In this document: positions 22,042 to 35,366 of the stretch, in pieces
How positions within the stretch are numbered: the stretch's first letter is position 1
Layout: each line of letters begins with the position of its first letter
Assembly (NCBI GenBank): GCA_964619485.1
Contig: CAZUCI010000002.1
Span: 27,975-91,974 of the forward strand
Origin: an uncultured Lachnospiraceae bacterium
Lineage (GTDB): Bacteria; Bacillota; Clostridia; Lachnospirales; Lachnospiraceae
Direction: 5' to 3'
DNA length: 64,000 bases
Notes under the pieces: model-generated
Database searches by the model: none
What the model was told of the DNA's origin: nothing
Seen by the model: only the letters and a program-made list of their open reading frames with translations
Translations under genes and position numbers: made by a program

Positions 22042-23394
22042 TCATAAAGTCAAGAAAAAAGTCAGGCGTTTCTCTGCAATGCGCAGGCAGGCCAGACAGG
22101 TTGGAACGATGTAAAAGCATGCGGAGAGCCATGCGGCCTGATCCGCAAAGCAGATGGCGGTGTAGCCGAACAGCGGAACAAAAACAGTGCTGACTGCGAT
22201 ACGGGCAATCATCTCCAGTGTACCTGACAGAATTGCCCGGCCGGAGAAGCCAATGGACTGGGTGGTCATGCGGAATACATTCAGGATGCCCAGAGACCAG
22301 AAGAAAAAGCCCATACAACGCAGATATTTTGCAGAAGCATCCAATACTGCCACATCCCCCTTTGATAAAAACAGAAGGGACAGGGTACGTCCGGCAAAAA
22401 TCAAAATAAGCCCTGCCAGCAGTCCGTAGAGAACACCGAGAAAGACGCCTCTTTTCAACCCGCCTCTTACACGGTCAAGCTTTCCGGCACCGAGGTTTTG
22501 TCCACAGAAGGTGGAAACGGCTGTTGCAATGGCATCAAATGGACACATGGCAAACTGCTTTATTTTCATACCGGCTGTGAAACCGGAAACATATATACTT
22601 CCCAGGCCATTGTTGGCTGACTGCATGACCATACTGCCGATGGCTGTGATGGAGTACTGCAGCCCCATGGGCAGACCCATACCAATCAGGAGGGAGATGC
22701 CGGAGGAATGAATGCGGCAGTCCGCTTTGGACAGCTTCAGGTCCGGGCATTTTTTCAAAATATAAATCAAGCACAAAAGTCCGCTGATTGCCTGTGCAAG
22801 AACCGTTGCAATGGCAGCACCGGCACAGCCGAGATGAAGAACCAGGATACAGAGCAGGTCAAGAATAATGTTGAGTACAGTGGAAACTGCCAGGAAAAGG
22901 AAGGGTGTTTTACTGTCGCCCACAGCTCTCAATATAGCGGCCTGCAAATTGTAAATCAGATTGAAGGGAATGCCAAGAAAAATAAGAAAAAGATATGCAT
23001 AGGCACCCTTGAAAATATTGTCCGGAGTGGAGAGCAGATGAAGAATCTGCGGACAAAATACGGAACAAAGAACGGTTAAGACTATGGCAAGTACAGTAGT
23101 GCAAACAGCACTTTGGAAAATCAGATTCCGCATCAGAGAGTAATCCCCGGCACCAAAGCGCTGGGCAATGGGGATGCCAAAGCCACAGCATACTCCGATA
23201 CAGAAACCCAGTACCAGAAACTGGACGCTGCTGGAAGCCCCCACGCTTGCAAGTGCATCCGGACCAAGATATTTTCCCACAATGGCGGCGTCCACAATAT
23301 TGTAGGTCTGCTGCAGCAGATTGCCCAAAAGCAGCGGCAGGGCAAATCTTAATATGAGTTTCCATGGATTTCCTTCGGTCATTGATTCTGTCAT
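22042..23394 (-). CDS. MATE family efflux transporter
   Basis: MTEGNPWKLILRFALP, NIVDAAIVGKYLG, GDSKTP, NIILD, GAAIATV. Start at 23394 follows AAGGAGA. Confidence 0.93.
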   Translation of the reverse strand: MTESMTEGNPWKLILRFALPLLLGNLLQQTYNIVDAAIVGKYLGPDALASVGASSSVQFLVLGFCIGVCCGFGIPIAQRFGAGDYSLMRNLIFQSAVCTTVLAIVLTVLCSVFCPQILHLLSTPDNIFKGAYAYLFLIFLGIPFNLIYNLQAAILRAVGDSKTPFLFLAVSTVLNIILDLLCILVLHLGCAGAAIATVLAQAISGLLCLIYILKKCPDLKLSKADCRIHSSGISLLIGMGLPMGLQYSITAIGSMVMQSANNGLGSIYVSGFTAGMKIKQFAMCPFDAIATAVSTFCGQNLGAGKLDRVRGGLKRGVFLGVLYGLLAGLILIFAGRTLSLLFLSKGDVAVLDASAKYLRCMGFFFWSLGILNVFRMTTQSIGFSGRAILSGTLEMIARIAVSTVFVPLFGYTAICFADQAAWLSACFYIVPTCLACLRIAEKRLTFFLTL

Positions 23395-23508
23395 CTGTTT
23401 TCTCCTTTGCATCCGTTCACGAACACATTATAAATCGTAACAGATTTCATTGCAACATTATAAAGTTGTGATATAACTTCTATATACGAAAGAAGTGGGT
23501 GGAAAGCC

Positions 23509-25197
23509 ATGAACCTTTTACTGCACTTGTTAGAACAGAATGCCGGAGTAATTCTGCTTTGTCTGATTTTGATCGTCTTTGCGGACGGTCTGTTTCGTGT
23601 ATGCATTTTTTCCAAAAGGAGAAGTGCGGTTAAATCGGGCACGAGAAAAAACGAAAACGCCTTTTTGCAAATGCTCAACTGCAGCAGCAAGGAGGCTTTT
23701 GCTTTGCTGGAAGAAAAAACGCTTCTGGCAGTCTGGGTCAGCGATAACATGGAACAGGTCACAGGGGTTCCGGGTGAGAACATATTTATGGATTCTGCAC
23801 AGATTTTTGCAGGTCTATCGGAGAGCGATAAGGAGAAATTTATCGCCCTTTACCATAGCTGGGACAGGAAAGAAGAATTTTGCTTTGAGGCTCCCTGGAG
23901 CTACCAGAGTAAAAGCGGGCTGCAGATTCGGATTGAGATTATTTGTAAGGATGGCAGAGAGCTGTTTCATTTGCGGAATGTTTCAGAGGAGAAGGAACAG
24001 CTGGAGCAGATGCGTGAAATGGTGGAGGAGGCAAAGCGCGGCGAGGAGGCAAAAACAAACTTTTTGTCCAACATGAGCCACGAAATCAGGACGCCCTTAA
24101 ATGGTATGCTGGGTATGATAGAGCTGGCAAAGATGAATCCAAAGGACGCGGACCGGGTGGCTGATTATCTTGGAAAAGCAGAGGAGCTGTCAAGATTTCT
24201 TTTGTCTGTTATCAACGATATTCTGGATATGTCACGTATTGAGAGCGGGAAGACGGAGCTGGAGAGCGTGGCCTTTGATATTTGCGCCATGGGTGAGAAG
24301 CTGGAAAATATGTTTCAGGGAACAATGGCAGACAAGGGCATTGATTTTTATGTGGATTATATTGAAATAGAAGAACCCTTCGTATTTGGAGATCAGCTGC
24401 GTATTTCCCAGATTTTAACCAATTTCCTTTCTAATTCATCCAAATTTACACCGGAGGGAGGAACCATTTCTCTGACTATCAGACAGATGAACAGTACACA
24501 GACGGAGTCCTCCTGGATGCTGCAGGTGAAGGATACAGGAAAGGGAATGGATGGAGAATTTCTGCATAAGCTGTTCCGGCCCTTTGAACAGGAGAACGGT
24601 GGAATTGCAAGAAAGTATGGCGGAAGCGGACTTGGAATGACCATTGCAGACAGTCTGGTTCACCTGATGGGCGGACAGATTCTGGTAGACAGTGAGATTG
24701 GTAAGGGGAGCACCTTTACTGTATTTTTGAAGCTTCCAATAGCGAAGAAAGAGGATATTATTGAGGAAGAAACAGTCGAGAGCGGAAATGAGGCTGTTTC
24801 ACTGGAGGGCAGGAGAATTCTGATGGCAGAGGATCAGAAGATCAATGCGGTCATTGTAGTACGCATGATGCAGTCCAAGGGCGTTACCATAGATGTGGCT
24901 GAAAATGGAAAACTGGTAACAGAGATGTTTGCAGCCTCGAAGCCGGGGTATTATGACGCAATTCTTATGGACATTCAGATGCCGGAGATGAATGGATGGG
25001 ATGCGGCGAAATGCATTCGCGCCATGGAGCGGGAGGATGCAAAGCAGATTCCAATTTTTGCACTTTCGGCAGATGCCTTTGTGGAGAATAAGCGAAAGAG
25101 TGTGGAGTCAGGAATGAATGCACATATCACGAAGCCAATTGATTTTAAAGAGCTGGAAAACTATTTGAAAACAGCATTTAAGGAATCGGGCAGGTAA
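23509..25197 (+). CDS. Hybrid sensor histidine kinase/response regulator
   Basis: One N-terminal TM; FLSNMSHEIRTPLN (phospho-His), NFLSNSSKFT, DTGKG, GSGLG; REC ILMAED..ILMDIQMPEMNG..KPID. Confidence 0.94.
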   Translation: MNLLLHLLEQNAGVILLCLILIVFADGLFRVCIFSKRRSAVKSGTRKNENAFLQMLNCSSKEAFALLEEKTLLAVWVSDNMEQVTGVPGENIFMDSAQIFAGLSESDKEKFIALYHSWDRKEEFCFEAPWSYQSKSGLQIRIEIICKDGRELFHLRNVSEEKEQLEQMREMVEEAKRGEEAKTNFLSNMSHEIRTPLNGMLGMIELAKMNPKDADRVADYLGKAEELSRFLLSVINDILDMSRIESGKTELESVAFDICAMGEKLENMFQGTMADKGIDFYVDYIEIEEPFVFGDQLRISQILTNFLSNSSKFTPEGGTISLTIRQMNSTQTESSWMLQVKDTGKGMDGEFLHKLFRPFEQENGGIARKYGGSGLGMTIADSLVHLMGGQILVDSEIGKGSTFTVFLKLPIAKKEDIIEEETVESGNEAVSLEGRRILMAEDQKINAVIVVRMMQSKGVTIDVAENGKLVTEMFAASKPGYYDAILMDIQMPEMNGWDAAKCIRAMEREDAKQIPIFALSADAFVENKRKSVESGMNAHITKPIDFKELENYLKTAFKESGR

Positions 25198-25201
25198 AAG
25201 G

Positions 25202-28200
25202 ATGAAAGACTTAATTTTTAAATTTATGAAAAGGAATGGAAGGCTTGTTTTGGGGGCAGCCCTGGTGCTGGCACTCTTTGTTGGCGTGCTTGTAAATGCA
25301 GCAAAGAACAAGGACGAATTTACGCCTGGGGGACAGGAAAATCATCAGCTTCCCTTTCAAAATGAGGATATGGACAAGACCTTTGATGGAAAGCAGTCTG
25401 CCACAGACGGACTGGAAATAGAAGAAAACACGGAGGATGATGAGAAGGAAAAGGAGCTGGAAGAGGGCGATGATGAGCTTTTGTCAAAGGACGATTCTGA
25501 TTTGCAGGATCAGCTGATTAACATTGCAAATCTGGTAAATCCTTCGGACAATGGAACAAAGGAAAACCCTGTTCCATCCCAGAATCCTTCAGCACCGGTA
25601 TTGAATGTTGGTCAAAAGGACGATGGTGATCCTTCGACTCCGCCTGGAATCGGACCTGTTCCGGGGATTGGAGACAATCCGGGTAATGGAGATGGTGGAA
25701 AGGGCGATGGCAAAGGGGACGGAAATGATGATGACAAGGAAAAAGAAGATCCCCCAGTCACACCTCCCAAGCCTGGAGAGGATAAAAAACCACCTAAAAA
25801 TCCTTCAACAAATCAGGATTTGACCCATGGGGATGATGATGCCTCTTACGGGAATAAGGATGAAAATAAGACTGCAGACAGCAAGGTCCCAGACAATACC
25901 TTTGAGGGAGGAACCATCCGAATGGTTAACTGTGTGCAGAAGTCAGATCAGATTTATCTGTTCCAGGGGGAATGCCCAACAGCGGAGCTCATGAAGGATT
26001 ATCTGAGTGTGGATGCCAGAATTTCTGTGGCAGCTGCTCCCGGACAGGCGGCATCGACAGTACATGTCCAGGATCTTAATTATTCCTATAAGAATAACCG
26101 TGATTCCTATGGCGGAGATTACTGTGTTGACTGGAACAGCGCTGAGGAGGGGACACAGAACCAGGCACCCTTACAGCCGGGAATCTATCAGGCATCCGTA
26201 TTTATGATCAATCCGGACAACGGAACCCAGACCCAGGCACGCGCAGGCTTTTCCTATACAGTTTATGATTATCAGCTGGAGCTTGAAGATTTTGAAGAAA
26301 ATTACAGTGCCCTTTCGGACAGTGCAAAGCCGCAGCTGCTTCACGCAGGTGAGAATGAGGAAATCAGCCTTGTGGCAGCCATTTCCAATATGAATAAAAT
26401 CATTCTGCAGAGAACAAATTCAGGGAAAAAATACACCCATATATTGAAAAAGAATGCAGACGGAACCTATGCGTCCTTCTTTGGGGGATGGTCTCTGTCA
26501 AAGGACGGAGCCACAGTTGGAAATGTTTTCGAGCTTTCCCATGTGAAGGCAGAGGAGCTGCTGGAGGATGCGGATGGAAATAAGTATTATAAAAAGACTC
26601 TATATCCGGTATGGATATCTGCCGGTGATGCGAGCAGCTATTATGAGATTACCTTGAAAAACGATGGAAGTGTGACAGCAGAGCGTTATCTGGGGGACTG
26701 CCGCAGCGTGAAAACCCTGGATATTCCCAATGGAGTGACAGTTGTAGACCTGACCTCCATAGGAAGGGACAGCTTTCCGGTGCTCACCTTAATCAATATT
26801 CCGGAGAGTGTTACATCCATTCTTTATCTTGACTCTATGACAATGTACCCAAAGCTTTCTGCATTTGGTGTGGCAGATGAAAATAAGCTTTTTATGGATG
26901 TGTCCGGAATTCTCTATAGTAAATCAGGGAAGACACTCCTTCGGGTTCCACCGGCAATGAGTAATCTGAGTGCCTGGTCAAAATACGTGGAAAGTATTGG
27001 CAGTAAAGCATTTCTTGATGTAAAAATGGCACAGGTGTCATTACCTGCATCTGTAAGAGAGATTGGGGAGCATGCGTTTGATCAGGCCAAAATTGCGACA
27101 CTGACAGAGCAGTCACCTCAAATTGTCTGGGGAAGCGGAAATCTCATAAGGAATGGGGCGGGTGCTTTCAATATCTCCCATATTCAGGTAGAGGATTCCC
27201 CGGAGGATGCTGTTTATTTAAAGCGTATCAGCAGCTTGAGTGATTATCTGACCACAGAGGGAAGCGACAGCCCGGGAAATGATGCAATGAGTATTCTGAC
27301 AACACCGTCAGGTGTAGAAAAGAATTATCAATATAAGGAAGGCTGGATTCTGGATCAGAATCAGACCAGAGTGGTGATGGGAACTGCAGCAGCCGGGACA
27401 CAGGCAGTGCTTCCCGAAGGTGTTACCACGGTAAAATCCGGTGCACTTTCTGGGTGTATGCAGCTGCAAAGGCTTACCATGTCATCTACAGTTAACATGC
27501 TGCCGGATGGCTGCTTTTTATCTGATTCTCTGACGGCAGTTTATTTTACAACAGCGACACCACCTAATATGGCGGGTGGAAAAATATTTGGCAGCTCCAT
27601 TCCAGACAGGATACGTCTGTATGTTCCGGTAGATTATCTTACAGACTATCTGAACATCTGGAAGCGCTATGAGCAAAGGGGCTACGGAAGTGGAACCACA
27701 GCGGGATTTACGGTTCCCTATGGTGACGGCATCAGTCAGGATGAGGCGGGTGCTGTATATTGGGAAGAAACGCCGGGGGCATTTACGTTGTTATCTGGAG
27801 AGCAGGTAGCCGGTGAATACACGGTAAAGGAAGGAACCACCAAAATTAAAAGCGGCGCCTTTTTGGGAAATACAGCACTTTCTGCTATTCATCTTGGCAG
27901 CGCAATTCAGACAATTGAAGCCAAAGCTTTTCAGGAATGTACAGCCTTGACAACAGTCACAGTGGGAGGACCTTTGACCACGGTGGGGGATTATGCTTTC
28001 AATAAGTGCAGTGCATTATCTGTTTTCCAATGGGAAAATGTTGCGGCGACCAGAAGTCTTTCCTCCATTGGACAGTGGGCATTTGCTGAGAGTGGATTGA
28101 CTGGAATTCCTGTTGATTTGGTCAGTGCCGCGGGAGAACCAAAATTATTTACGGTAAGAATTTCCCAGGATGGAGACTTATCTCCTTACAACAGCTGCGT

Positions 28201-28489
28201 GATTTTCGAGGGTGATGATGTAAGAGGAAGAGGGAAGATGTTCCCAAATCTGAGTTCAATTGGAGATTATGCATTTGCTTATTGCCAGAATATCAGCTAT
28301 ATGAGCATACCTCAGTTCGGTGATATTGAGGCATGGAAAGCACTTTTATATGAAAAATGGAATGTGAACTGGTTCATGACGAATACCACCATATCACCTA
28401 CACCTGTTCCCTGCGGAAGCTCTTATGATCCGGTTAAGAATCCGACAGCCGGCGGTGGAGAAGGTGGCGGCGGAGGAGAAATTATTTAA
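25202..28489 (+). CDS. Large membrane-anchored surface protein with BspA-type leucine-rich repeats (LRR_5) and an InlB-B/Flg_new-like repeat
   Basis: N-terminal TM, acidic and Pro/Gly linker, FFGGWS..LYPVW, repeated IPNGVT / LPASVREIGEHAF / LPEGVTTVKSGAL / IEAKAFQECTAL / IGDYAFAYC. Confidence 0.82.
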   Translation: MKDLIFKFMKRNGRLVLGAALVLALFVGVLVNAAKNKDEFTPGGQENHQLPFQNEDMDKTFDGKQSATDGLEIEENTEDDEKEKELEEGDDELLSKDDSDLQDQLINIANLVNPSDNGTKENPVPSQNPSAPVLNVGQKDDGDPSTPPGIGPVPGIGDNPGNGDGGKGDGKGDGNDDDKEKEDPPVTPPKPGEDKKPPKNPSTNQDLTHGDDDASYGNKDENKTADSKVPDNTFEGGTIRMVNCVQKSDQIYLFQGECPTAELMKDYLSVDARISVAAAPGQAASTVHVQDLNYSYKNNRDSYGGDYCVDWNSAEEGTQNQAPLQPGIYQASVFMINPDNGTQTQARAGFSYTVYDYQLELEDFEENYSALSDSAKPQLLHAGENEEISLVAAISNMNKIILQRTNSGKKYTHILKKNADGTYASFFGGWSLSKDGATVGNVFELSHVKAEELLEDADGNKYYKKTLYPVWISAGDASSYYEITLKNDGSVTAERYLGDCRSVKTLDIPNGVTVVDLTSIGRDSFPVLTLINIPESVTSILYLDSMTMYPKLSAFGVADENKLFMDVSGILYSKSGKTLLRVPPAMSNLSAWSKYVESIGSKAFLDVKMAQVSLPASVREIGEHAFDQAKIATLTEQSPQIVWGSGNLIRNGAGAFNISHIQVEDSPEDAVYLKRISSLSDYLTTEGSDSPGNDAMSILTTPSGVEKNYQYKEGWILDQNQTRVVMGTAAAGTQAVLPEGVTTVKSGALSGCMQLQRLTMSSTVNMLPDGCFLSDSLTAVYFTTATPPNMAGGKIFGSSIPDRIRLYVPVDYLTDYLNIWKRYEQRGYGSGTTAGFTVPYGDGISQDEAGAVYWEETPGAFTLLSGEQVAGEYTVKEGTTKIKSGAFLGNTALSAIHLGSAIQTIEAKAFQECTALTTVTVGGPLTTVGDYAFNKCSALSVFQWENVAATRSLSSIGQWAFAESGLTGIPVDLVSAAGEPKLFTVRISQDGDLSPYNSCVIFEGDDVRGRGKMFPNLSSIGDYAFAYCQNISYMSIPQFGDIEAWKALLYEKWNVNWFMTNTTISPTPVPCGSSYDPVKNPTAGGGEGGGGGEII

Positions 28490-28507
28490 AGTAGTAAAGG
28501 AGAACGT

Positions 28508-29472
28508 ATGATAATAGAACAATCAGAACAAATTATCTCAGAGGTTGGGAAGGTACTGGTAGGAAAAGATGATGTTATTAAAAAACCTTAATGGCAATTT
28601 ATGCGGGCGGACATGTGCTGTTGGAGGATTATCCCGGAGTTGGTAAAACTACTTTGGCGCTGGCTTTTTCCAGGGTACTGGGAATGGAGTATAAGCGTAT
28701 CCAGTTTACATCGGATACCATGCCTTCTGATCTGATTGGCTTTTCTGTATATGATAAGCAGAAGGATACCTTTATTTACAGACCGGGAGCGGTTAACTGT
28801 CAGCTGTTTCTTGGGGATGAAATCAATCGTACCAGTCCCAAGACTCAGGCGGCACTTCTGGAGGTTATGGAGGAGGGCAATGTGTCAGTGGATGGAATTA
28901 CGCATCCGCTTCCAAAGCCATTTATCTGTATTGCCACACAAAATCCGCTGGGCTCCATTGGTACTCAGCCGCTTCCTGATTCTCAGATGGATCGTTTTAT
29001 GGTAAGGCTTTCCATTGGATTTCCCAGCATAGAGGAACAGGCCATGATTATTAAACAGCGTCAGCATCATAATCCTTTACAGGATGTGAAAGCGGTTGTA
29101 TCTGCAGAGGATATTCTTGATATTCAAAGGTACATTGCCTCTGTAACCATGTCTGAGGAAATTCTTCTTTATATTTCTGCATTGTGTGAAATGACAAGAC
29201 TGTCACCAATGGTGGAAATGGGTGTCAGTCCCCGTGGTGCGCTGGCAATTAGCCAGATGGCAAGAGCGCATGCGCTGTTGGAAAAGAGAGATTATGTCGT
29301 GCCTGAGGATGTTCAGGAGGTATTTCTGGATGTCTGTGCCCATCGATGCGTGATGCGCCCACAGGCAAGAATCGAGGGTGTGACGGCAGAGAGCTATTTA
29401 CAGGATATCTTGAAGAAGGCGACACCACCGGAATTGGGAAACGGAAAAGCTTTATTTGGCAGAAAGGGTTAG
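28508..29472 (+). pseudogene. MoxR-family AAA+ ATPase with a 1-nt frameshift in an A6 run at 28580-28585
   Basis: ATG 28508 reads MIIEQSEQIISEVGKVLVGKDDVIKKP*. A -1 shift gives KKTLMAIYAGGHVLLEDYPGVGKT, then RIQFTSD, DEINRTSPKTQAALLE, ATQNP and DRF. Confidence 0.85.
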
Positions 29473-29475
29473 CCT

Positions 29476-30633
29476 ATGAGGAAGAACAGGATTCTCTACT
29501 GTGTACTGCTTCTTTTTTGTCTTATTTTTCTGGTTGCATCCAACCACAGAAGTGTTTTACTTTTGTGTCTGCTGCTGCTCTTTTTTGCTCTGTTTTCATT
29601 CACCCTGCTGTTTTTGGGCAGAAACGAGATAACCTCCGTTTCCCTGGAGCGCAAAGTGGGAAAAGAAAATGATAATAAGGGAAGTGAGCTGTATCTTCAT
29701 GTGGTTCGTAAGCATAAATTCCCAATTGGAAAAATCAGAATCAGACTGTTCTATGAGAACCGTTTGTACGGGGAAAGGAATCAGTGGATTTTATGTCTGA
29801 ATCCCCAGCCGGAAAGAGATATGTGGTATTCTTTGCCATGGAATGAGAGAGATTGTGGATATTATGTCATTTCATTTGAAAGAATACTTCTCTATGATTT
29901 AATGGGGCTGATGGGAATTACCCGAAAATGCAGCGGAGAAATTCAATATCCCCGATATCCTTCTTTTTATCAGTTTTTGCTGCATGCCACCAAAAATCAG
30001 AAAAATCTGTATGATGGGGAATTTTACGATCCAAATAAGAGAGGTCACGATCCCTCAGAGGTCTTTGATTTGCGGGATTACCAGGAGGGAGATGCCATCA
30101 ACAGTATTCACTGGAAGCTGTCAGGAAAGCTGGAACGACTGATCGTGAGAGAAAGTGGAAATCCCATCACCAATGAGACGGTAATTTTATGTGATCCAGG
30201 ATTTGAAAGCTTTCGCGATAATCATAAGCTGGTTGATGGAATTCTGTGTCTTTTCCTGTCTGTCAGCAAGGCACTGCTGGATCAGGGAATGAAGCACAAG
30301 GTATATTTTCCACAGAAAACGTCTTTTTTGGAGCGGGAAATTTCCACAGATGGACAATTGATGGATGCACTCCTTCTGTTTCTTCAGATTCCAATTACCG
30401 ATGGAAAAGAATTGTTTACACAGTGGAGGCTTCAGGGTGGAACAGCGAGAACCATTTTGATTACCGGTGCACTCAGGGAGTTGGAATATCAGGAGCTGGC
30501 AGAAAAAACAGCACTGACAGTTATTCTTTTATCCGAGCATAGTCTTGAGCAGATTGAGGAGAGAAGTAATTACAAAATTGTGGCCCTTCCACTGGATGAG
30601 ATTGGGCAGAAGGTAAAACAGATTGATTTTTAA
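29476..30633 (+). CDS. DUF58 (vWA-related) membrane-anchored protein
   Basis: Two N-terminal TMs; EVFDLRDYQEGDAINSIHWKLSGK signature. Confidence 0.88.
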   Translation: MRKNRILYCVLLLFCLIFLVASNHRSVLLLCLLLLFFALFSFTLLFLGRNEITSVSLERKVGKENDNKGSELYLHVVRKHKFPIGKIRIRLFYENRLYGERNQWILCLNPQPERDMWYSLPWNERDCGYYVISFERILLYDLMGLMGITRKCSGEIQYPRYPSFYQFLLHATKNQKNLYDGEFYDPNKRGHDPSEVFDLRDYQEGDAINSIHWKLSGKLERLIVRESGNPITNETVILCDPGFESFRDNHKLVDGILCLFLSVSKALLDQGMKHKVYFPQKTSFLEREISTDGQLMDALLLFLQIPITDGKELFTQWRLQGGTARTILITGALRELEYQELAEKTALTVILLSEHSLEQIEERSNYKIVALPLDEIGQKVKQIDF

Positions 30634-30648
30634 AGGGACAGGCAGGAC

Positions 30649-32961
30649 ATGAACAAAGAAGTAACGATATATGGAAAAAACAGCATAGTGCAGAGTGAGA
30701 GATGGCAGTTTTTGCATGAGGTCATGGTTGCCGTTTTCTTTTTGTCGTCTTTTTTATGCGTGTTATCCTGCTTTATGGAGCCCCTCTGGGTGAAGCTTGT
30801 GCTGGTTTTTACAGCTTTTTTTCCTATTTTGATTTTGTGCTTTCCGATTTCTTCCAGGCAAAGTACATGGGTCAGAAATATTTGTACAATTCTGACAGTC
30901 GTGTCTGTTTTGGCCGGTCCGACCAGATGGATTCATGGATTTTTGTCCTTTGCCAATCTGCTCATAGAGATGTGGAATCATCATTTTCATACCTTTATTT
31001 CAGGCTATAGGGTTGAAGCTGTCAGCCAGGCAGCGATGCTTCAGTTCTACGGATCGCTTGTCCTTTTGGCACTGTTTTTTTCTATCCTGTGCGTGAGAAT
31101 GCACTGCAGTTTTGTACTGATTATGGCAGGGTGCACACTGCTTCTGGCCGCCAGCTATTTTCAGCTTGATATTCCCCTGTGGATTTATGTGGCCATGGGT
31201 GTTGGAGTGTGGCTGTTTTTTGCAGCTGAAAGTATGGTGGATCAGGGCTATCGCATTTTGCTGAGTGTTGTGGGCGTTACTTTGGCTGTGGGTGTCCTGT
31301 TTGTGACAGTATCGTCAGGATTTACAGGGAGCACAGCAATTGCCAATGTTAAAGATACTTTTCTTCAGGGAATTGATTACCTGCGTTTTGGAAGGGATTC
31401 TCTTCCCCAGGGAGATTTGACAAAGGCTGCTTTTTTGAAGGGCGATGGGGAGGAAACGCTCTGCATCAGAGGAGAAGTATCTGTTCCCCTGCATCTGCGG
31501 GGATTTGTGGGAGGTACCTATACGGGAAGCGGGTTTGAGAGAACGGATTTGTCGGCCTACAGTGGTGATATGAATGGTCTGATGGAGTGGCTTACAGAAA
31601 ACAACTTTCAGCAGCCCTATCAGATGGCTCATTTTTGCTTTCTGACCAACACATCCGAAGCTGGAAGGAAGCTCTCTGTTATCAACAGAGGCGCTTACAG
31701 AAAATATCTTTACCTGCCCTATGAGACCATTTCGCTGGAGCGTGGAGATGGAGGGGTGAAAAACGACTGGCAGGTGGCTTCAAAAGGAATTTTTGGTGCA
31801 GGGCGCTATGAATTTACCATGGAGGATTCCAATTCCAGTGAGGACTTTGTGATGGGAAGCATTGATTCCACAAAGGAGGGAGCAGATCAGTTTGAAGCGG
31901 CGGAGAATGAGTACCGCAATTTTGTTTACAATACCTATCTTACAGTGGATGACCACGTAAGGGATGTTGTGGAGGAACAGCTCTTTTCCGGCTTGAAGCT
32001 GGAAAATGAAAGGTCTGTGGAGGATGTAACCGGAAAAATCCGTCTTGCATTGCTGCAGTATAATCAGTTCGCAGAAAAACCGGATGTATATTCCGGCGAG
32101 AAGGACTTTATTGACTGGTTTTTAGAGAATGACCATAAGTGCAACTCTGCCTATTATGCAGCGACAGCCGTTCTGGCCTACCGTTGTGCCGGGATTCCGG
32201 CCCGCTATGTGGAGGGCTATTATCTTTCAGAGGCACAGATAAGCAATGCCTCCAGCCAAAACGAGAGTGAGGTCTCTTTGACAGGTGAGGATACAAGAGC
32301 CTGGGTGGAAACCTATATCGGCGGCGTTGGCTGGCTTCCGGTGGAGGTTACTCTCGGCTATTATCAGGCCGGCTTTTCCATGCTGGAAATGGCAGTTGCA
32401 CCGGAGGATACCATTGAGGTAGTACAGGGACAGGATGATTCTGTGGCAGGAAAGACAACCGATTCCGTAATGCCCGGGGACGGTGGTGGAGAGGGTAAGG
32501 AACCACCGCTGCCAACTGTACTGCATTTTCTTGGGTGGATGCTCCTCACAGGGGTGTGTATACTTGGACTGGCATTTCTTGTCCGCATGCAGGCATATGT
32601 CAGAAGTGCGGCTTTTTATGCGGCAGTGCAAAAAAGCAGAGCAGACCGGCACTGCCGGATGGTATATGACAAGGTGTGCAGAATCTTTTTGCTGGCAGGT
32701 GTAACAGGGGATTTGCGATTTCCCAGAAAGTGCGTGAATGAGGTGACGACGGTGCTGCCGGGTATTACGGCAGACGAGATAAATCGTTTTATTTCTATTG
32801 TTGAAAAGGGAATTTTTAAGGGAAGCCTGTATTCTGCAGAGCTGGTGACCATTGACCGTTTTATGGATCTGTGTCTGCAGCAGCTTATAGAGAAGGGTAG
32901 AGTTCTGACAAAGGTCAAAACATATTATGTATATGCACTGCATAGAAAAAGGGAAGGCTGA
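30649..32961 (+). CDS. Membrane transglutaminase-like domain protein (catalytic residues apparently degenerate)
   Basis: About 7 N-terminal TMs; LHLRGFVGGTY; AVLAYRCAGIPARYVEGY; RAWVETYIGGVGWLPVEVT; a later TM. Confidence 0.85.
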   Translation: MNKEVTIYGKNSIVQSERWQFLHEVMVAVFFLSSFLCVLSCFMEPLWVKLVLVFTAFFPILILCFPISSRQSTWVRNICTILTVVSVLAGPTRWIHGFLSFANLLIEMWNHHFHTFISGYRVEAVSQAAMLQFYGSLVLLALFFSILCVRMHCSFVLIMAGCTLLLAASYFQLDIPLWIYVAMGVGVWLFFAAESMVDQGYRILLSVVGVTLAVGVLFVTVSSGFTGSTAIANVKDTFLQGIDYLRFGRDSLPQGDLTKAAFLKGDGEETLCIRGEVSVPLHLRGFVGGTYTGSGFERTDLSAYSGDMNGLMEWLTENNFQQPYQMAHFCFLTNTSEAGRKLSVINRGAYRKYLYLPYETISLERGDGGVKNDWQVASKGIFGAGRYEFTMEDSNSSEDFVMGSIDSTKEGADQFEAAENEYRNFVYNTYLTVDDHVRDVVEEQLFSGLKLENERSVEDVTGKIRLALLQYNQFAEKPDVYSGEKDFIDWFLENDHKCNSAYYAATAVLAYRCAGIPARYVEGYYLSEAQISNASSQNESEVSLTGEDTRAWVETYIGGVGWLPVEVTLGYYQAGFSMLEMAVAPEDTIEVVQGQDDSVAGKTTDSVMPGDGGGEGKEPPLPTVLHFLGWMLLTGVCILGLAFLVRMQAYVRSAAFYAAVQKSRADRHCRMVYDKVCRIFLLAGVTGDLRFPRKCVNEVTTVLPGITADEINRFISIVEKGIFKGSLYSAELVTIDRFMDLCLQQLIEKGRVLTKVKTYYVYALHRKREG

Positions 32962-33489
32962 TCACTCAACCTTCCCCATTTTATTAAAAGGAAAATAGCG
33001 GAATACGGCCTTCCCAAGGATATTATCCATTGGAACAAAGGTCTTTTCCCAATATCTGGAATCATAGGAATTGTTACGATTATCACCCATGACAAAATAG
33101 CTGTTGTTGGGCACCTCATAGGGACCAAAATTTCCAAGAGGGGTTTCTCTGGTGAAGGAGTCATCCAGAGGAGTGTCAGAATTGTTAATGTATACCTTGC
33201 CGTCAATCACTGTGACTGTTTCACCCGGCAGCCCGATGATTCGCTTGATATAAAGCTGGGATTCGTCATCAGGAAGACGGAAAATGATGATGTCAAAACG
33301 CTGGGGAATTTTACTTTTATATGCAAAACGGTTTCCGATGACACGGTCACCAATCATAATGGTGTCCTGCATGGATTCAGATGGGATGCGGGCATTGACA
33401 ATCAACACAGAGTCAATGAACCAGACAAGGCAGAGTACAACCACAAAAATGACAACATATTCTAAAGCTTCTCTTAATTTACTATTCAA
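32962..33489 (-). CDS. lepB: Signal peptidase I
   Basis: IPSESM (Ser), YIKRIIGLPG (Lys), GDNRNNSYDSR. TTG start. Its stop codon directly abuts the convergent gene's stop (tga/tca). Confidence 0.93.
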   Translation of the reverse strand: MNSKLREALEYVVIFVVVLCLVWFIDSVLIVNARIPSESMQDTIMIGDRVIGNRFAYKSKIPQRFDIIIFRLPDDESQLYIKRIIGLPGETVTVIDGKVYINNSDTPLDDSFTRETPLGNFGPYEVPNNSYFVMGDNRNNSYDSRYWEKTFVPMDNILGKAVFRYFPFNKMGKVE

Positions 33490-33537
33490 ACCGTTTACAC
33501 ACTTCTTTCTCTTTTCAGTGATTTATGTTATCCTCAT

Positions 33538-33832
33538 GATGTGAGTGTCTGGGAATCTGGTGATGCAGGTTTGGGCGGGGCAGGTTGTTTTTTATGACTT
33601 TAAAAGGGATTAGATATTCTTGAAATTCCCTTATAAAGTCAGCAATTCACAGACACGATGTCTGTGAAAGACCCATCGGAGCCACGGATGGCGACTGTGG
33701 GTCGTTTGCGTAAACATACAATACTCTAAACGGGAATTCTTAGAATATCTTACTCCCTTTTATCGGAATAAAAAAAACAACCTGCCCCGCCCAAACCTGT
33801 CAGGCATCACTAAATTCCCAGGCGCACACATC
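33538..33832. mobile_element. 295-bp nested palindromic non-coding element (MITE/REPIN-like)
   Basis: About 60-bp imperfect terminal IRs (..caggtttgggcggggcaggttgttttt / aaaaacaacctgccccgcccaaacctg..), an inner ~40-bp IR and two central hairpins. Confidence 0.7.
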
Positions 33833-33872
33833 GTCTTTATTATACAGTTACAAAATTTAGGAGTAAAGAGAA

Positions 33873-35366
33873 ATGTACGATTATGTATTATTTGATTTAG
33901 ATGGAACCCTTTCTGACCCCAAGGAGGGAATCTGCAAGTCGGTGCAGTATGCTCTGCATGATCAGGGGATTGAAGAGCCGGATATAGATAAACTGGAGCC
34001 CTTTATCGGGCCGCCCCTGGGAGCCAGCTTTGCCCAGTTTTACGGGATGGATGAGCAGCAGTGCCAAAAGGCAATCAAGAAGTTTCGTGAGCGCTTTGAA
34101 ACCATTGGAATCTACGAGAATGTTTTGTATCCGGGGATGGACAGACTGCTGGCAGATTTATGTGCACGGGGATGTAAACTGGCAGTTGCTTCCAGTAAAC
34201 CGAGAGAATTTGTGGAGATTGTGTTGGAACACTTTAACATCCGCTCCTATTTTTCTGTGGTCATGGGCTCTGAGAAGGATGGCAGGAGAGTGGAAAAGGA
34301 GGAAGTCATGGAGGAGACACTGCGTCTTTTGTTTCCGGACACCTTTCCGGATTTTCCAAGGGAGAAGGTTGCCATGGTGGGCGATAGAAGGTTCGATATG
34401 GAGGGAGCAAAGCGGTTTGGAGTAACGGCAATTGGAGTCGCCTTTGGCTATGCTCCTGTGGGAGAGCTGGAGAGCGCAGGTGCTGACAGAATCGTGGAGG
34501 ATATGGACGGATTGTGGGAGGCTGTCATCCAGGAAAACCGTATCCGCAGAGCTCCGAAGCTGCGTCCGTTGAAAAAGATTCTGGATATTGTTTCTCCACT
34601 TGTATATTACTATCTCCTGACCACAATCATTTGTCTGGCTGGTCAGCTGGTCATTCAGACGCTTGTTCATGGACCACTGTCCTCCTATGGAGCATGGGTG
34701 TCGGCACATTCCTCGCAGCTGGCAGTTTATCTCAATGGAATTGCAAATATTGTGGCCGGTGGATTTTGTCTGTGGTTATATGGAAAAGAGGCAGAAAAAC
34801 CGGTTTCTGATATGATTACAAGAAAGAGAATGCTGAAATTCGGACATGAAATACCTTGTCTCATTGTGCTTACAATATCCATCTCACTTTTTTTGAATCT
34901 GCTCTTTTCCTATCTGCAGATTATGGGCCGTTCAGAAGCTTATGGACAGGTCAGCAGTATCCAGTATTCTGTGTCCCTGGAGGTTGGGCTGTTCTTTTAT
35001 GGAATTGTGGCTCCTCTGGCGGAGGAAGCGGTTTTCCGTGGCCTGATATTTGGCAGAATCCGTCATTATTTTGGTGCAATGCCGGCGGTTCTGATTTCAG
35101 CACTGATTTTTGGCGCTTATCATGGTAATATCGTGCAGTTTCTCTATGCCTTTTTAATGGGACTGCTTCTGGCAGCGGTATACGAGAAGTATCATACCCT
35201 TTATGCTCCTGTTTTGGTGCATGCCCTGGCGAATCTGGCAGTTTATACGGTAAGCCGCGTGGCTGCAATCAACAGGCTTCTCTCTGTTCCTGTATTTCTG
35301 GTGCTTTTTGTTTTGGCAGCAGCTTCCGGGATGCTGCTGTTTAAGCCGGGGAAAACTTCAAAATAA
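33873..35366 (+). CDS. HAD hydrolase fused to CPBP (CAAX protease/Abi) intramembrane metalloprotease
   Basis: FDLDGTLSD, VASSK, MVGDRRFD; then TMs with LAEEAVFRG, FGAYH and HALAN in a single ORF. Confidence 0.9.
   Translation: MYDYVLFDLDGTLSDPKEGICKSVQYALHDQGIEEPDIDKLEPFIGPPLGASFAQFYGMDEQQCQKAIKKFRERFETIGIYENVLYPGMDRLLADLCARGCKLAVASSKPREFVEIVLEHFNIRSYFSVVMGSEKDGRRVEKEEVMEETLRLLFPDTFPDFPREKVAMVGDRRFDMEGAKRFGVTAIGVAFGYAPVGELESAGADRIVEDMDGLWEAVIQENRIRRAPKLRPLKKILDIVSPLVYYYLLTTIICLAGQLVIQTLVHGPLSSYGAWVSAHSSQLAVYLNGIANIVAGGFCLWLYGKEAEKPVSDMITRKRMLKFGHEIPCLIVLTISISLFLNLLFSYLQIMGRSEAYGQVSSIQYSVSLEVGLFFYGIVAPLAEEAVFRGLIFGRIRHYFGAMPAVLISALIFGAYHGNIVQFLYAFLMGLLLAAVYEKYHTLYAPVLVHALANLAVYTVSRVAAINRLLSVPVFLVLFVLAAASGMLLFKPGKTSK

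Follow-up and report, generated by a model that had tools for sequence, protein, structure and literature searches.

Organization of the five-gene locus

The stretch of DNA analysed here (the window) comprises 64,000 nucleotides from an uncultured Lachnospiraceae bacterium (contig CAZUCI010000002.1 of assembly GCA_964619485.1, positions 27,975 to 91,974 of the forward strand) and belongs to a contig of 92 kb in a metagenome-assembled genome (MAG) of 2.82 Mb, which is in 137 contigs and is 92% complete. At 23509-32961 it carries five genes, all on the plus strand, that code in this order for a hybrid histidine kinase, a leucine-rich repeat (LRR) protein with LRR_5 repeats, a MoxR ATPase, a DUF58 protein and a TgpA-like protein with a transglutaminase-like core, the last three forming a triad. 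From comparison of their sequences across genomes we read these five genes as a conserved and functionally coupled module. The positions of the open reading frames (ORFs) and the Pfam matches, of which that for DUF58 is below threshold, agree with the five co-directional genes that an earlier reading of the same DNA, here called the sequence-only reading, had placed there. The intergenic gaps are 4, 18, 3 and 15 bp as that reading had given them, except that the value of 18 bp holds only when MoxR is started at 28508, in a frame that stops after 27 codons. The features are listed in Table 1.

Table 1. Features of the five-gene locus and its downstream border in the window
Feature	Coordinates	Strand	Basis
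Hybrid histidine kinase, 562 aa	23509..25197	+	Pfam HisKA + HATPase_c + Response_reg, hydropathy, AlphaFold2 (AF2) model
LRR_5 (BspA-type) surface protein, 1095 aa	25202..28489	+	Pfam LRR_5 1.3e-34, hydropathy
MoxR-type AAA+ ATPase gene, frame interrupted	28508..29472	+	Pfam AAA_3 + AAA_lid_2; intact form 321 aa
A6 homopolymer, site of one-base deletion relative to A7 of the sister strain	28580..28585	+	strain comparison
DUF58-type protein, 385 aa	29476..30633	+	sub-threshold Pfam, conserved motif, AF2 fold
TgpA-like membrane protein, 770 aa	30649..32961	+	Pfam Transglut_core, alignment, match to 6g49
Hairpin with 12-bp stem across the junction of two convergent stop codons, candidate shared terminator	32950..32977	.	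pattern match only
S26 signal peptidase gene, convergent, 0 bp from the last stop codon of the five-gene string	32962-33489	-	

Linkage of the kinase and LRR genes to the triad

By alignment of the closest relatives, 80 loci with related TgpA-like genes were retrieved from species-representative genomes, their genes were called by a simple longest-ORF procedure, and they were annotated by phmmer with the window proteins as queries, the presence of a kinase or LRR gene being defined by the phmmer thresholds. An orthologous hybrid kinase was found beside the triad in 26 of the 80 loci, and a giant LRR protein (762-2276 aa) accompanied the kinase in 24 of these 26, the contig ending at the expected LRR position in the other two. 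LRR_5 was confirmed by Pfam in seven other clusters, three of which had been missed by the phmmer query. When the TgpA-like proteins were placed in a tree (FastTree, 81 proteins, many long branches), all 26 kinase-positive loci fell in one clade of 33 rows with a support of 99, which also contains two kinase-negative and five truncated loci, and no locus outside this clade had the kinase (Fisher p = 9.5e-15, shared ancestry ignored). The sequence-only reading had proposed that the kinase and LRR genes are linked to the triad and had named rare adjacency of these genes to the triad elsewhere as what would speak against it. Such rarity was not found by neighbourhood analysis: among the 21 loci of the window's TgpA-like clade that have full flanks, a full-length orthologous kinase is present in 18, with one more cut by a contig end, and an LRR or giant protein in 19. 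The linkage is, however, confined to one subclade whose TgpA-like proteins are without the catalytic Cys and is not a property of triads generally, as neither a kinase nor an LRR gene adjoins any of the 11 Cys-retaining triads with full flanks.

The order of the genes differs between lineages. Clostridia have the window's order of kinase, LRR, MoxR, DUF58 and TgpA-like, and most Coriobacteriia (Collinsella, Eggerthella and Slackia) have kinase, MoxR, DUF58, TgpA-like and LRR. Linkage that outlasts rearrangement is a classical sign of functional coupling, and the linkage of the kinase and LRR genes to the triad, being kept despite this change in gene order, thus points to such coupling. The identity between clusters is highest for MoxR, the most conserved of the five components, at 61-66% to the MoxR of other clusters, and falls to 40-46% for the kinase, 26-32% for the DUF58 and TgpA-like proteins and 21-26% in local matches for the LRR protein, a gradient that fits what would be a conserved cytoplasmic engine with fast-evolving exposed parts. 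Among 27 clusters no sixth conserved gene (such as one for an HPt protein, a response regulator, an FHA protein or a phosphatase) came up; the search yielded nothing beyond antisense shadow ORFs and neighbours specific to a lineage.

The module is uncommon within the window's genus: a full-length TgpA-like relative is present in only one of 17 genomes, and at that locus a 222-aa ORF and a gene for a 7TM-HD-GYP protein (HD_5; L021 13000-14724) stand in place of the kinase and LRR genes. An HD-GYP-type (HD_5) protein is also encoded directly after the TgpA-like gene in Roseburia (L025/L026, 12260-13315), and a possible role of HD_5 genes beside the triad is an alternative link to cyclic-di-GMP signalling. 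Several module contigs lie in bins whose names fit them poorly (L029, L035, L038 and L045, GTDB representative records), for example at 46.6% G+C in a Bifidobacterium catenulatum bin, at 65.8% in a Bacteroidaceae bin, and in a Succinivibrio bin, and a module contig labelled Acutalibacteraceae groups closely with Collinsella. These are likely cases of mis-binning or mislabelling, and since several record labels are clearly wrong the taxon range is to be read as Clostridia and Coriobacteriia.

Loss of catalytic residues in the TgpA-like protein and its relation to other triads

From hydropathy, the TgpA-like protein is predicted to have about six N-terminal transmembrane (TM) helices, an extracytoplasmic domain of about 405 aa, a further TM helix at 627-645 and a basic cytoplasmic tail of 125 aa. 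Its transglutaminase-like core is at 477-566 (Pfam Transglut_core, PF01841, 4.9e-14), and the profile of the clade matches the periplasmic domain of Pseudomonas aeruginosa TgpA (6g49), which is the only solved homologue, at 7.8e-11. The window protein is very divergent, its best relatives apart from that of the sister strain being 27-32% identical. Where TgpA has Cys, His and Asp, it has Ser, Arg (in DTRAWVETY) and Glu (in GWLPVEVT), and the position of the Cys (GFC in TgpA) is A, S or D throughout the kinase-linked clade, both in an alignment of 27 homologues and in the profile against 6g49. Judged from these alignments, the kinase-linked clade of TgpA-like proteins is one that has lost the catalytic Cys.

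Two more MoxR-DUF58-TgpA triads are present in the same genome, C11 (L022 6126-10743, minus strand) and C19 (L023 6304-10892, minus strand). Both have kept the catalytic Cys (GYC) and neither has a kinase or LRR neighbour, and thus this genome holds the enzyme-type triad as well as the Cys-less kind that is found in the window. What is also seen in the tree is a sister clade of Cys-less TgpA-like proteins, with GYS or GYD in place of GYC, in which there is no kinase and the triad is flanked by giant secreted proteins. These giants are of 1500-2200 aa, are encoded downstream of the TgpA-like gene (L060, L062, L064, L065, L078, L084 and L105), and have Big_2 domains with choline-binding repeats, cadherin-like domains with dockerin, GLUG or no known domain, several of them also having C-terminal TM anchors. 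Because this clade without kinases has the triad together with giant proteins, the primary partnership appears to be that of the dead transglutaminase-like protein with a giant surface protein, the kinase having been added in one lineage.

The DUF58 protein, the hybrid kinase and the LRR protein

The DUF58 (PF01882) match of the window protein is at 17.3 bits, below the cut-off of 23.4, and its orthologue from the same genus scores 35.8 bits. The protein carries the conserved motif EVFDxRxYxxGDxxRxIHWKLS, and its predicted layout is a two-helix membrane hairpin at 6-45, a cytoplasmic beta-sandwich at 52-170 and a vWA-like alpha/beta domain at 197-385. In the AF2 model (pLDDT 82.7, pTM 0.75) the C-terminal half has as its best PDB match the vWA domain of MDN1 (8ql1), a metal ion-dependent adhesion site (MIDAS) domain, and the vWA domain of Rpn10 was matched too. 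The DxSxS MIDAS motif was considered as a marker of the kinase-linked clade and dropped; it does not discriminate, because it is absent from the DUF58 proteins of all clades compared.

The hybrid kinase is predicted from hydropathy to have about 14 external residues and one TM helix at 15-33, the remainder being cytoplasmic, with a PAS-like domain at about 60-157, DHp/HisKA at 181-247, HATPase_c at 294-410 and a receiver at 437-553. Its AF2 model (pLDDT 84) has a beta-beta-helices-beta-beta-beta unit at 62-157 that runs into the DHp helix, and the matches found by Foldseek were the PAS/LOV-DHp-CA kinases WalK, VicK and YF1. H191, D442, D488 and K542 do not vary among 20 kinase orthologues. In each of four distant genomes the closest match to the window kinase anywhere in the genome is the triad-linked one, with 41-45% identity, E values of 1e-120 to 1e-134 and the N-terminal domain covered, whereas the other hybrid kinases of those genomes reach 1e-85 at best and match over the catalytic core only. 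By these comparisons the triad-linked kinase is a specific orthologue. The kinases of Coriobacteriaceae and Eggerthellaceae start right at the PAS-like domain and have no TM helix, and therefore the input that all these kinases share is cytoplasmic. Neither an HPt domain nor a cognate response regulator was found in the kinase protein by Pfam or in the cluster; several small stand-alone HPt ORFs lie elsewhere in the genome, which does not imply a partnership with the kinase.

The LRR protein is predicted from hydropathy to have a basic N-terminus, one TM or signal-anchor helix at 15-33 and an external part of about 1060 aa. The helix is followed by a juxtamembrane F-x-P motif (EFTPGG, within 25202-25330), an acidic linker rich in Pro and Gly that reaches to about residue 230, a region of about 250 aa without a Pfam match, LRR_5 repeats to about residue 1050 and a Gly-rich tail. 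In this protein of exported type PF13306 (LRR_5) is matched in three stretches, no LPXTG motif was found, and the similarity to the LRR adhesin HupY/LrrG (NCBIfam) is weak and far under the cut-off. An N-terminal alignment of 20 cluster-linked LRR proteins has the TM helix and the acidic linker, with the F-x-P motif in most; in Christensenellales a lipobox takes the place of the N-terminal helix. About 10 residues past F-x-P, the LRR proteins of several Clostridia have an N-Q-[VI]-x-F motif with a conserved Gln. This juxtamembrane F-x-P / N-Q-[VI]-x-F region could be the segment that is recognised by the transglutaminase-like ectodomain.

The ectodomains of the LRR and TgpA-like proteins are, from hydropathy, the only predicted extracytoplasmic parts of the module. 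The search at relaxed Pfam thresholds over the kinase N-terminal domain, the middle region of the LRR protein, and the first half of the ectodomain and the tail of the TgpA-like protein gave nothing usable. The sequence-only reading had suggested that the LRR protein is the external sensor of the kinase. The link to surface sensing is supported, but direct contact of the two proteins at the membrane is unlikely as a general route, because the kinases of Coriobacteriia have no TM helix and the conserved input is a cytoplasmic PAS-like domain.

The interrupted moxR frame

MoxR was recognised by Pfam (AAA_3 2e-52, AAA_lid_2 3.6e-24), GVGKT and DEINR are conserved in it, and its gene adjoins that of DUF58. 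The sequence-only reading had taken it as one continuous frame and had thereby read through a frameshift. The frame that starts at 28508 runs into a stop codon (28589-28591) after 27 codons, and only from 28591 onwards can the AAA+ frame be read (293 aa). If the A6 run is read as A7, a MoxR of 321 aa results which aligns with its relatives from residue 1 and is 60% identical to the copy of the same genus; A7, or a slip of -1 at the run, gives back ...VIKKTLMAIYAGGHVLLED.... In a contig of a sister strain (ENA ERZ25038538), which is 99.56% identical over 21.5 kb, the run is A7, and the LRR gene is followed at a distance of exactly 18 bp by an intact gene for a MoxR of 321 aa. We do not favour programmed -1 frameshifting at T-AAA-AAA-C as an explanation, because the sister strain has an in-frame A7 and no relative examined shows such an arrangement.

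With MoxR frameshifted in this assembly, the module may be off in this strain. One explanation is that A6 is not an assembly error and is instead a real loss of function or a slipped-strand, phase-variable state of MoxR, so that the module here is off or decaying, and we consider this possible, with chances somewhat below even. Besides the window, another assembly record, 100% identical to it over 2438 bp, has the A6 allele, and the difference between A6 and A7 is the only coding-sequence indel between the window and the sister strain in the 21.5 kb compared. The A7 allele is likewise found in two assembly records that are identical to each other, and the records of one allele may share samples; the two A6 records are possibly from one sample, and the coverage given in their names is low (3.7 and 2.2). 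A run of six or seven bases is, moreover, short if phase variation is to be efficient, MoxR is otherwise intact with 0 substitutions relative to the sister strain, and the four other genes show no decay. Split components were seen in three other clusters as well. In Slackia isoflavoniconvertens DSM 22006 (L047 7153-8107) MoxR is split into 157 and 200 aa and differs from the MoxR gene of a related MAG by a one-base indel close to a C5 run, in a Roseburia MAG (L026 2003-7803) the LRR gene is split into 613 and 1332 aa with the TM helix and the FDP motif in the first part, and in L101 the TgpA-like gene is split into 549 and 173 aa. These may be recurrent inactivation or simply assembly errors.

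Surroundings of the locus

A divergent MatE gene lies 96 bp upstream of the kinase gene. At the other end the convergent signal peptidase gene does sit flush with the end of the five-gene string, as the sequence-only reading had it. Between the signal peptidase gene (minus strand) and a HAD/Rce1-like gene (plus strand) there is a palindromic intergenic element at 33538-33832 that is inverted in the sister strain: its inner 176 bp are 96% identical in reverse orientation and only 66.5% in forward orientation. The element is bounded by the inverted repeats GGCGGGGCAGGTTGTTTTTT...AAAAAAAACAACCTGCCCCGCC and looks like an invertible DNA switch.

A proposed mode of action and its alternatives

From the computed gene order, domain content, conservation, single origin of the five-gene set and orthology of the kinases, and from the likewise computed loss of the transglutaminase catalytic residues, retention of the phospho-sites of kinase and receiver, and predicted topologies and folds, we infer that the module functions as a cell-surface sensor similar to the epibiont sensing and response (Esr) pathway, that is, as a two-component version of the PFNA/Esr cassettes that are compared with it below. 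By analogy with those cassettes this is our best reading, and we give it somewhat better than even chances. The giant LRR_5 protein would be exported and held in the membrane by its N-terminal helix, or by a lipid anchor in some lineages, and its fast-evolving ectodomain would bind an external ligand, which may be another cell, a phage, an epibiont, or material from the host or the diet. The ectodomain of the TgpA-like protein, which is catalytically dead, would then be a non-covalent holder of the LRR protein and not a cross-linking enzyme, the binding being probably through the conserved juxtamembrane F-x-P segment. Occupancy or load would cross the membrane through the TM bundle and tail of the TgpA-like protein and the hairpin of DUF58, whose cytoplasmic vWA-like domain would be the adaptor for the MoxR AAA+ ring. 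The state of the complex would be read by the cytoplasmic PAS-like domain of the kinase, which would autophosphorylate on H191 and pass the phosphate to D488 of its own receiver. As no output gene is conserved in the cluster, the output would leave it, probably through a stand-alone HPt protein and then a response regulator encoded outside the cluster.

Several points weigh against this sensor reading. The module is known from genes and predicted structures alone, and the analogy with PFNA and Esr rests on shared architecture. Two members inside the kinase-linked clade are without the kinase, and the sister clade suggests that signalling may be an add-on. No output gene is conserved in the cluster. 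The frameshifted MoxR copy in the window may not work. Finally, a scan of 23300-33900 for promoters and terminators gave counts equal to those in shuffled sequence; being at chance level it is uninformative on operon boundaries.

The same arrangement of genes would be explained if the module were a machine for the biogenesis or anchoring of a surface protein, in which the triad folds, inserts, displays or retains the LRR adhesin as its client and the kinase only tunes the process, for instance by responding to the load on secretion or the envelope or through control of MoxR. This is the main rival of the sensor reading, and we consider it rather unlikely. It is favoured by the following: the triad of the sister Cys-less clade stands beside varied giant surface proteins with no kinase, loss of EsrD frees EsrA1 from cells (PMC13622651), MoxR1 is reported to aid the export of RipA (PMC12067865), and MoxR-vWA pairs are regarded as assembly chaperones (PMC7159879). 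However, MoxR and the vWA domain of DUF58 are predicted to be cytoplasmic whereas the bulk of the client would be outside the cell, and the kinase, kept across changes in gene order and across phyla, is a dedicated orthologue whose own input domain is conserved too, which is more than a generic regulator needs. In Esr, too, the giant protein is required for signalling and is not merely displayed (PMC13622651). The sensor and biogenesis readings are not mutually exclusive and can coexist.

That the module belongs to the MoxR-vWA conflict or defence systems described by Kaur et al. (2020), and would deploy a toxic effector past a threshold, is in our judgement very improbable. The intact MoxR of the sister strain has a weak precomputed match to bpMoxR (PF20030), which its orthologue from the same genus matches at 1.5e-9, and the authors of the Esr study tie Esr to conflict systems (PMC13622651), but the cluster is without an effector, toxin, peptidase, beta-propeller, VMAP or iSTAND, PADLOC gave no matches for the five proteins, and there is no histidine kinase among the vWA-associated components according to Kaur et al. 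(PMC7159879). Accidental adjacency of an orphan kinase and an adhesin gene to a housekeeping triad is hardly credible: it would agree with the one other genome of the window's genus that has a full-length TgpA-like relative at a locus without kinase and LRR genes, but at least 26 further species-level genomes from two phyla have the same five genes, and the kinases fall in a single TgpA-like clade and survive the change in gene order.

A more far-reaching version of the sensor reading would be that the module represents a widespread and so far overlooked class of split receptors in gut Gram-positive bacteria, the histidine-kinase counterpart of the Esr threat sensor. In such a class a hypervariable LRR protein on a dead transglutaminase scaffold would signal through the DUF58 vWA adaptor and the MoxR ring to the PAS-kinase-receiver protein and elicit a phosphorelay response to a specific surface-attached partner, for example an epibiont, a phage or material of the host, while frameshift-prone runs would toggle a costly antigenic module within populations. 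Taken as a whole we regard this as improbable.

Comparison with known systems

The sequence-only reading could not match the five genes to any described pathway; counterparts do exist, namely the PFNA operon and the Esr pathway. The PFNA operon of Bifidobacterium has the genes pkb2-fn3-aaa-atp-duf58-tgm, which include those for the kinase Pkb2 and an FN3 protein of 1994 aa, and it has been described as restricted to bifidobacteria (PMC8430577, PMC10688814). It has been shown that the PFNA genes are co-transcribed in B. longum GT15 and that Pkb2 phosphorylates the MoxR ATPase in vitro (PMC8430577). Its gene order (membrane kinase, giant surface repeat protein, MoxR, DUF58, transglutaminase-like protein) is that of the window, and the components of both cassettes are highly divergent between species. 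What sets PFNA apart from the window is its Hanks-type Ser/Thr kinase and its FN3 protein, often with PrpC and FHA genes in addition.

The Esr pathway was reported in Schaalia odontolytica and other Actinomycetes (bioRxiv, September 2026; PMC13622651). In that study, cells in which the giant surface protein EsrA1 had been deleted no longer responded to a Saccharibacteria epibiont, cells that had lost the transglutaminase EsrD1 released EsrA1, and the signal was found to reach an FHA protein by way of MoxR, a vWA protein and a pair of Ser/Thr kinase and phosphatase (PMC13622651). Its authors report that Esr is effectively limited to the class Actinomycetes and relate it to MoxR-vWA conflict systems (PMC13622651). 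As in the window, the genes for a giant secreted protein without LPXTG, MoxR, a vWA-type partner, a transglutaminase-like membrane protein and a kinase lie together, divergence is greatest in the sensor, and the conserved cytoplasmic engine is common to both. The two differ in that Esr has a Ser/Thr kinase, a phosphatase and an FHA output whereas the window has a hybrid histidine kinase with a receiver and no output gene in the cluster; in that the sensor of Esr is a filament of Ig repeats with a beta-propeller, that of the window being an LRR_5 protein with an N-terminal membrane anchor; in that EsrD is proposed to link EsrA covalently whereas the TgpA-like protein of the window is without the catalytic Cys; and in that Esr is found in Actinomycetes and the window module in Clostridia and Coriobacteriia. 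From gene content we infer that PFNA and Esr are the same kind of cluster, the Esr preprint being silent on PFNA.

Of the features of PFNA and Esr, the giant exported protein and the string of MoxR, DUF58/vWA and transglutaminase-like genes are present in the window, and the Ser/Thr kinase, PP2C and FHA are absent. When 150 Actinomycetota genomes were sampled, full-length matches were found in only three, the query Collinsella genome included, and at 20 other actinobacterial triad loci no adjacent Ser/Thr kinase (HRDxKPxN motif) and no giant gene beside MoxR was found. None of the control genomes of the family search yielded a locus. The genome labelled Bifidobacterium catenulatum, which holds L029, has about 46% G+C in the four stretches examined and only Firmicutes-like triads.

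The remaining systems resemble the window in part. Triads of the TgpA type (P. aeruginosa TgpA, PDB 6g49) share with it the three-gene core and the layout of a TM bundle, an external domain of transglutaminase fold, one TM helix and a cytoplasmic tail, but TgpA keeps the catalytic Cys (GFC) and the HAW and GW..D motifs where the window protein has Ser, Arg and Glu, and Cys-retaining triads, unlike that of the window, have no kinase or LRR neighbour. Ternary MoxR-vWA conflict systems have been catalogued by Kaur, Burroughs, Iyer and Aravind (2020), who list no histidine kinase among the vWA-associated components, and MoxR-vWA pairs are described there in general as assembly chaperones (PMC7159879). 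They are like the window in having a MoxR and vWA-fold pair that is proposed to set a threshold or to remodel a third, variable sensing component, and the window is unlike them in that it has no VMAP, iSTAND, FtsH or beta-propeller third component and no effector domains. In Mycobacterium tuberculosis MoxR1 was reported to aid the export of RipA, which is encoded just upstream (PMC12067865). The mycobacterial ripA-ripB-moxR1-DUF58-vWA neighbourhood is like the window in that the gene of an exported protein immediately precedes a MoxR-DUF58 pair, but its client is a small Tat-exported NlpC/P60 hydrolase, its third gene codes for a vWA membrane protein and there is no kinase. PADLOC had no match for any of the five window proteins, NCBIfam gave no equivalog name, and a full-text literature search together with these two resources found no description of a kinase-LRR version of the cassette.

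To our knowledge, MoxR-DUF58-transglutaminase triads are very common and almost unexplained. The Esr preprint is the first functional dissection of such a cluster (PMC13622651), and the present comparison suggests that a PFNA/Esr-like design is present beyond the bifidobacteria and Actinomycetes, in Clostridia and Coriobacteriia that are abundant in the human gut, several cultured strains of which carry the module, among them Coprococcus comes MSK.16.63, Lawsonibacter sp. LCP25S3_F5 and Adlercreutzia sp. ZJ176. Relative to PFNA and Esr, the Ser/Thr kinase-phosphatase-FHA branch would have been exchanged in the window module for a hybrid histidine kinase and the sensor for an LRR protein. This swap of kinase and sensor points to a conserved logic in which a transglutaminase-like holder carries a giant surface protein and is combined with a MoxR/vWA engine and a kinase, and it gives a comparative handle on which parts are essential; the Cys-less transglutaminase-like part throughout the clade also bears on the covalent-anchoring model of Esr. 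On the ground of this shared architecture, the five-gene set looks like an undescribed histidine-kinase/LRR version of the actinobacterial PFNA/Esr sensing cassettes.

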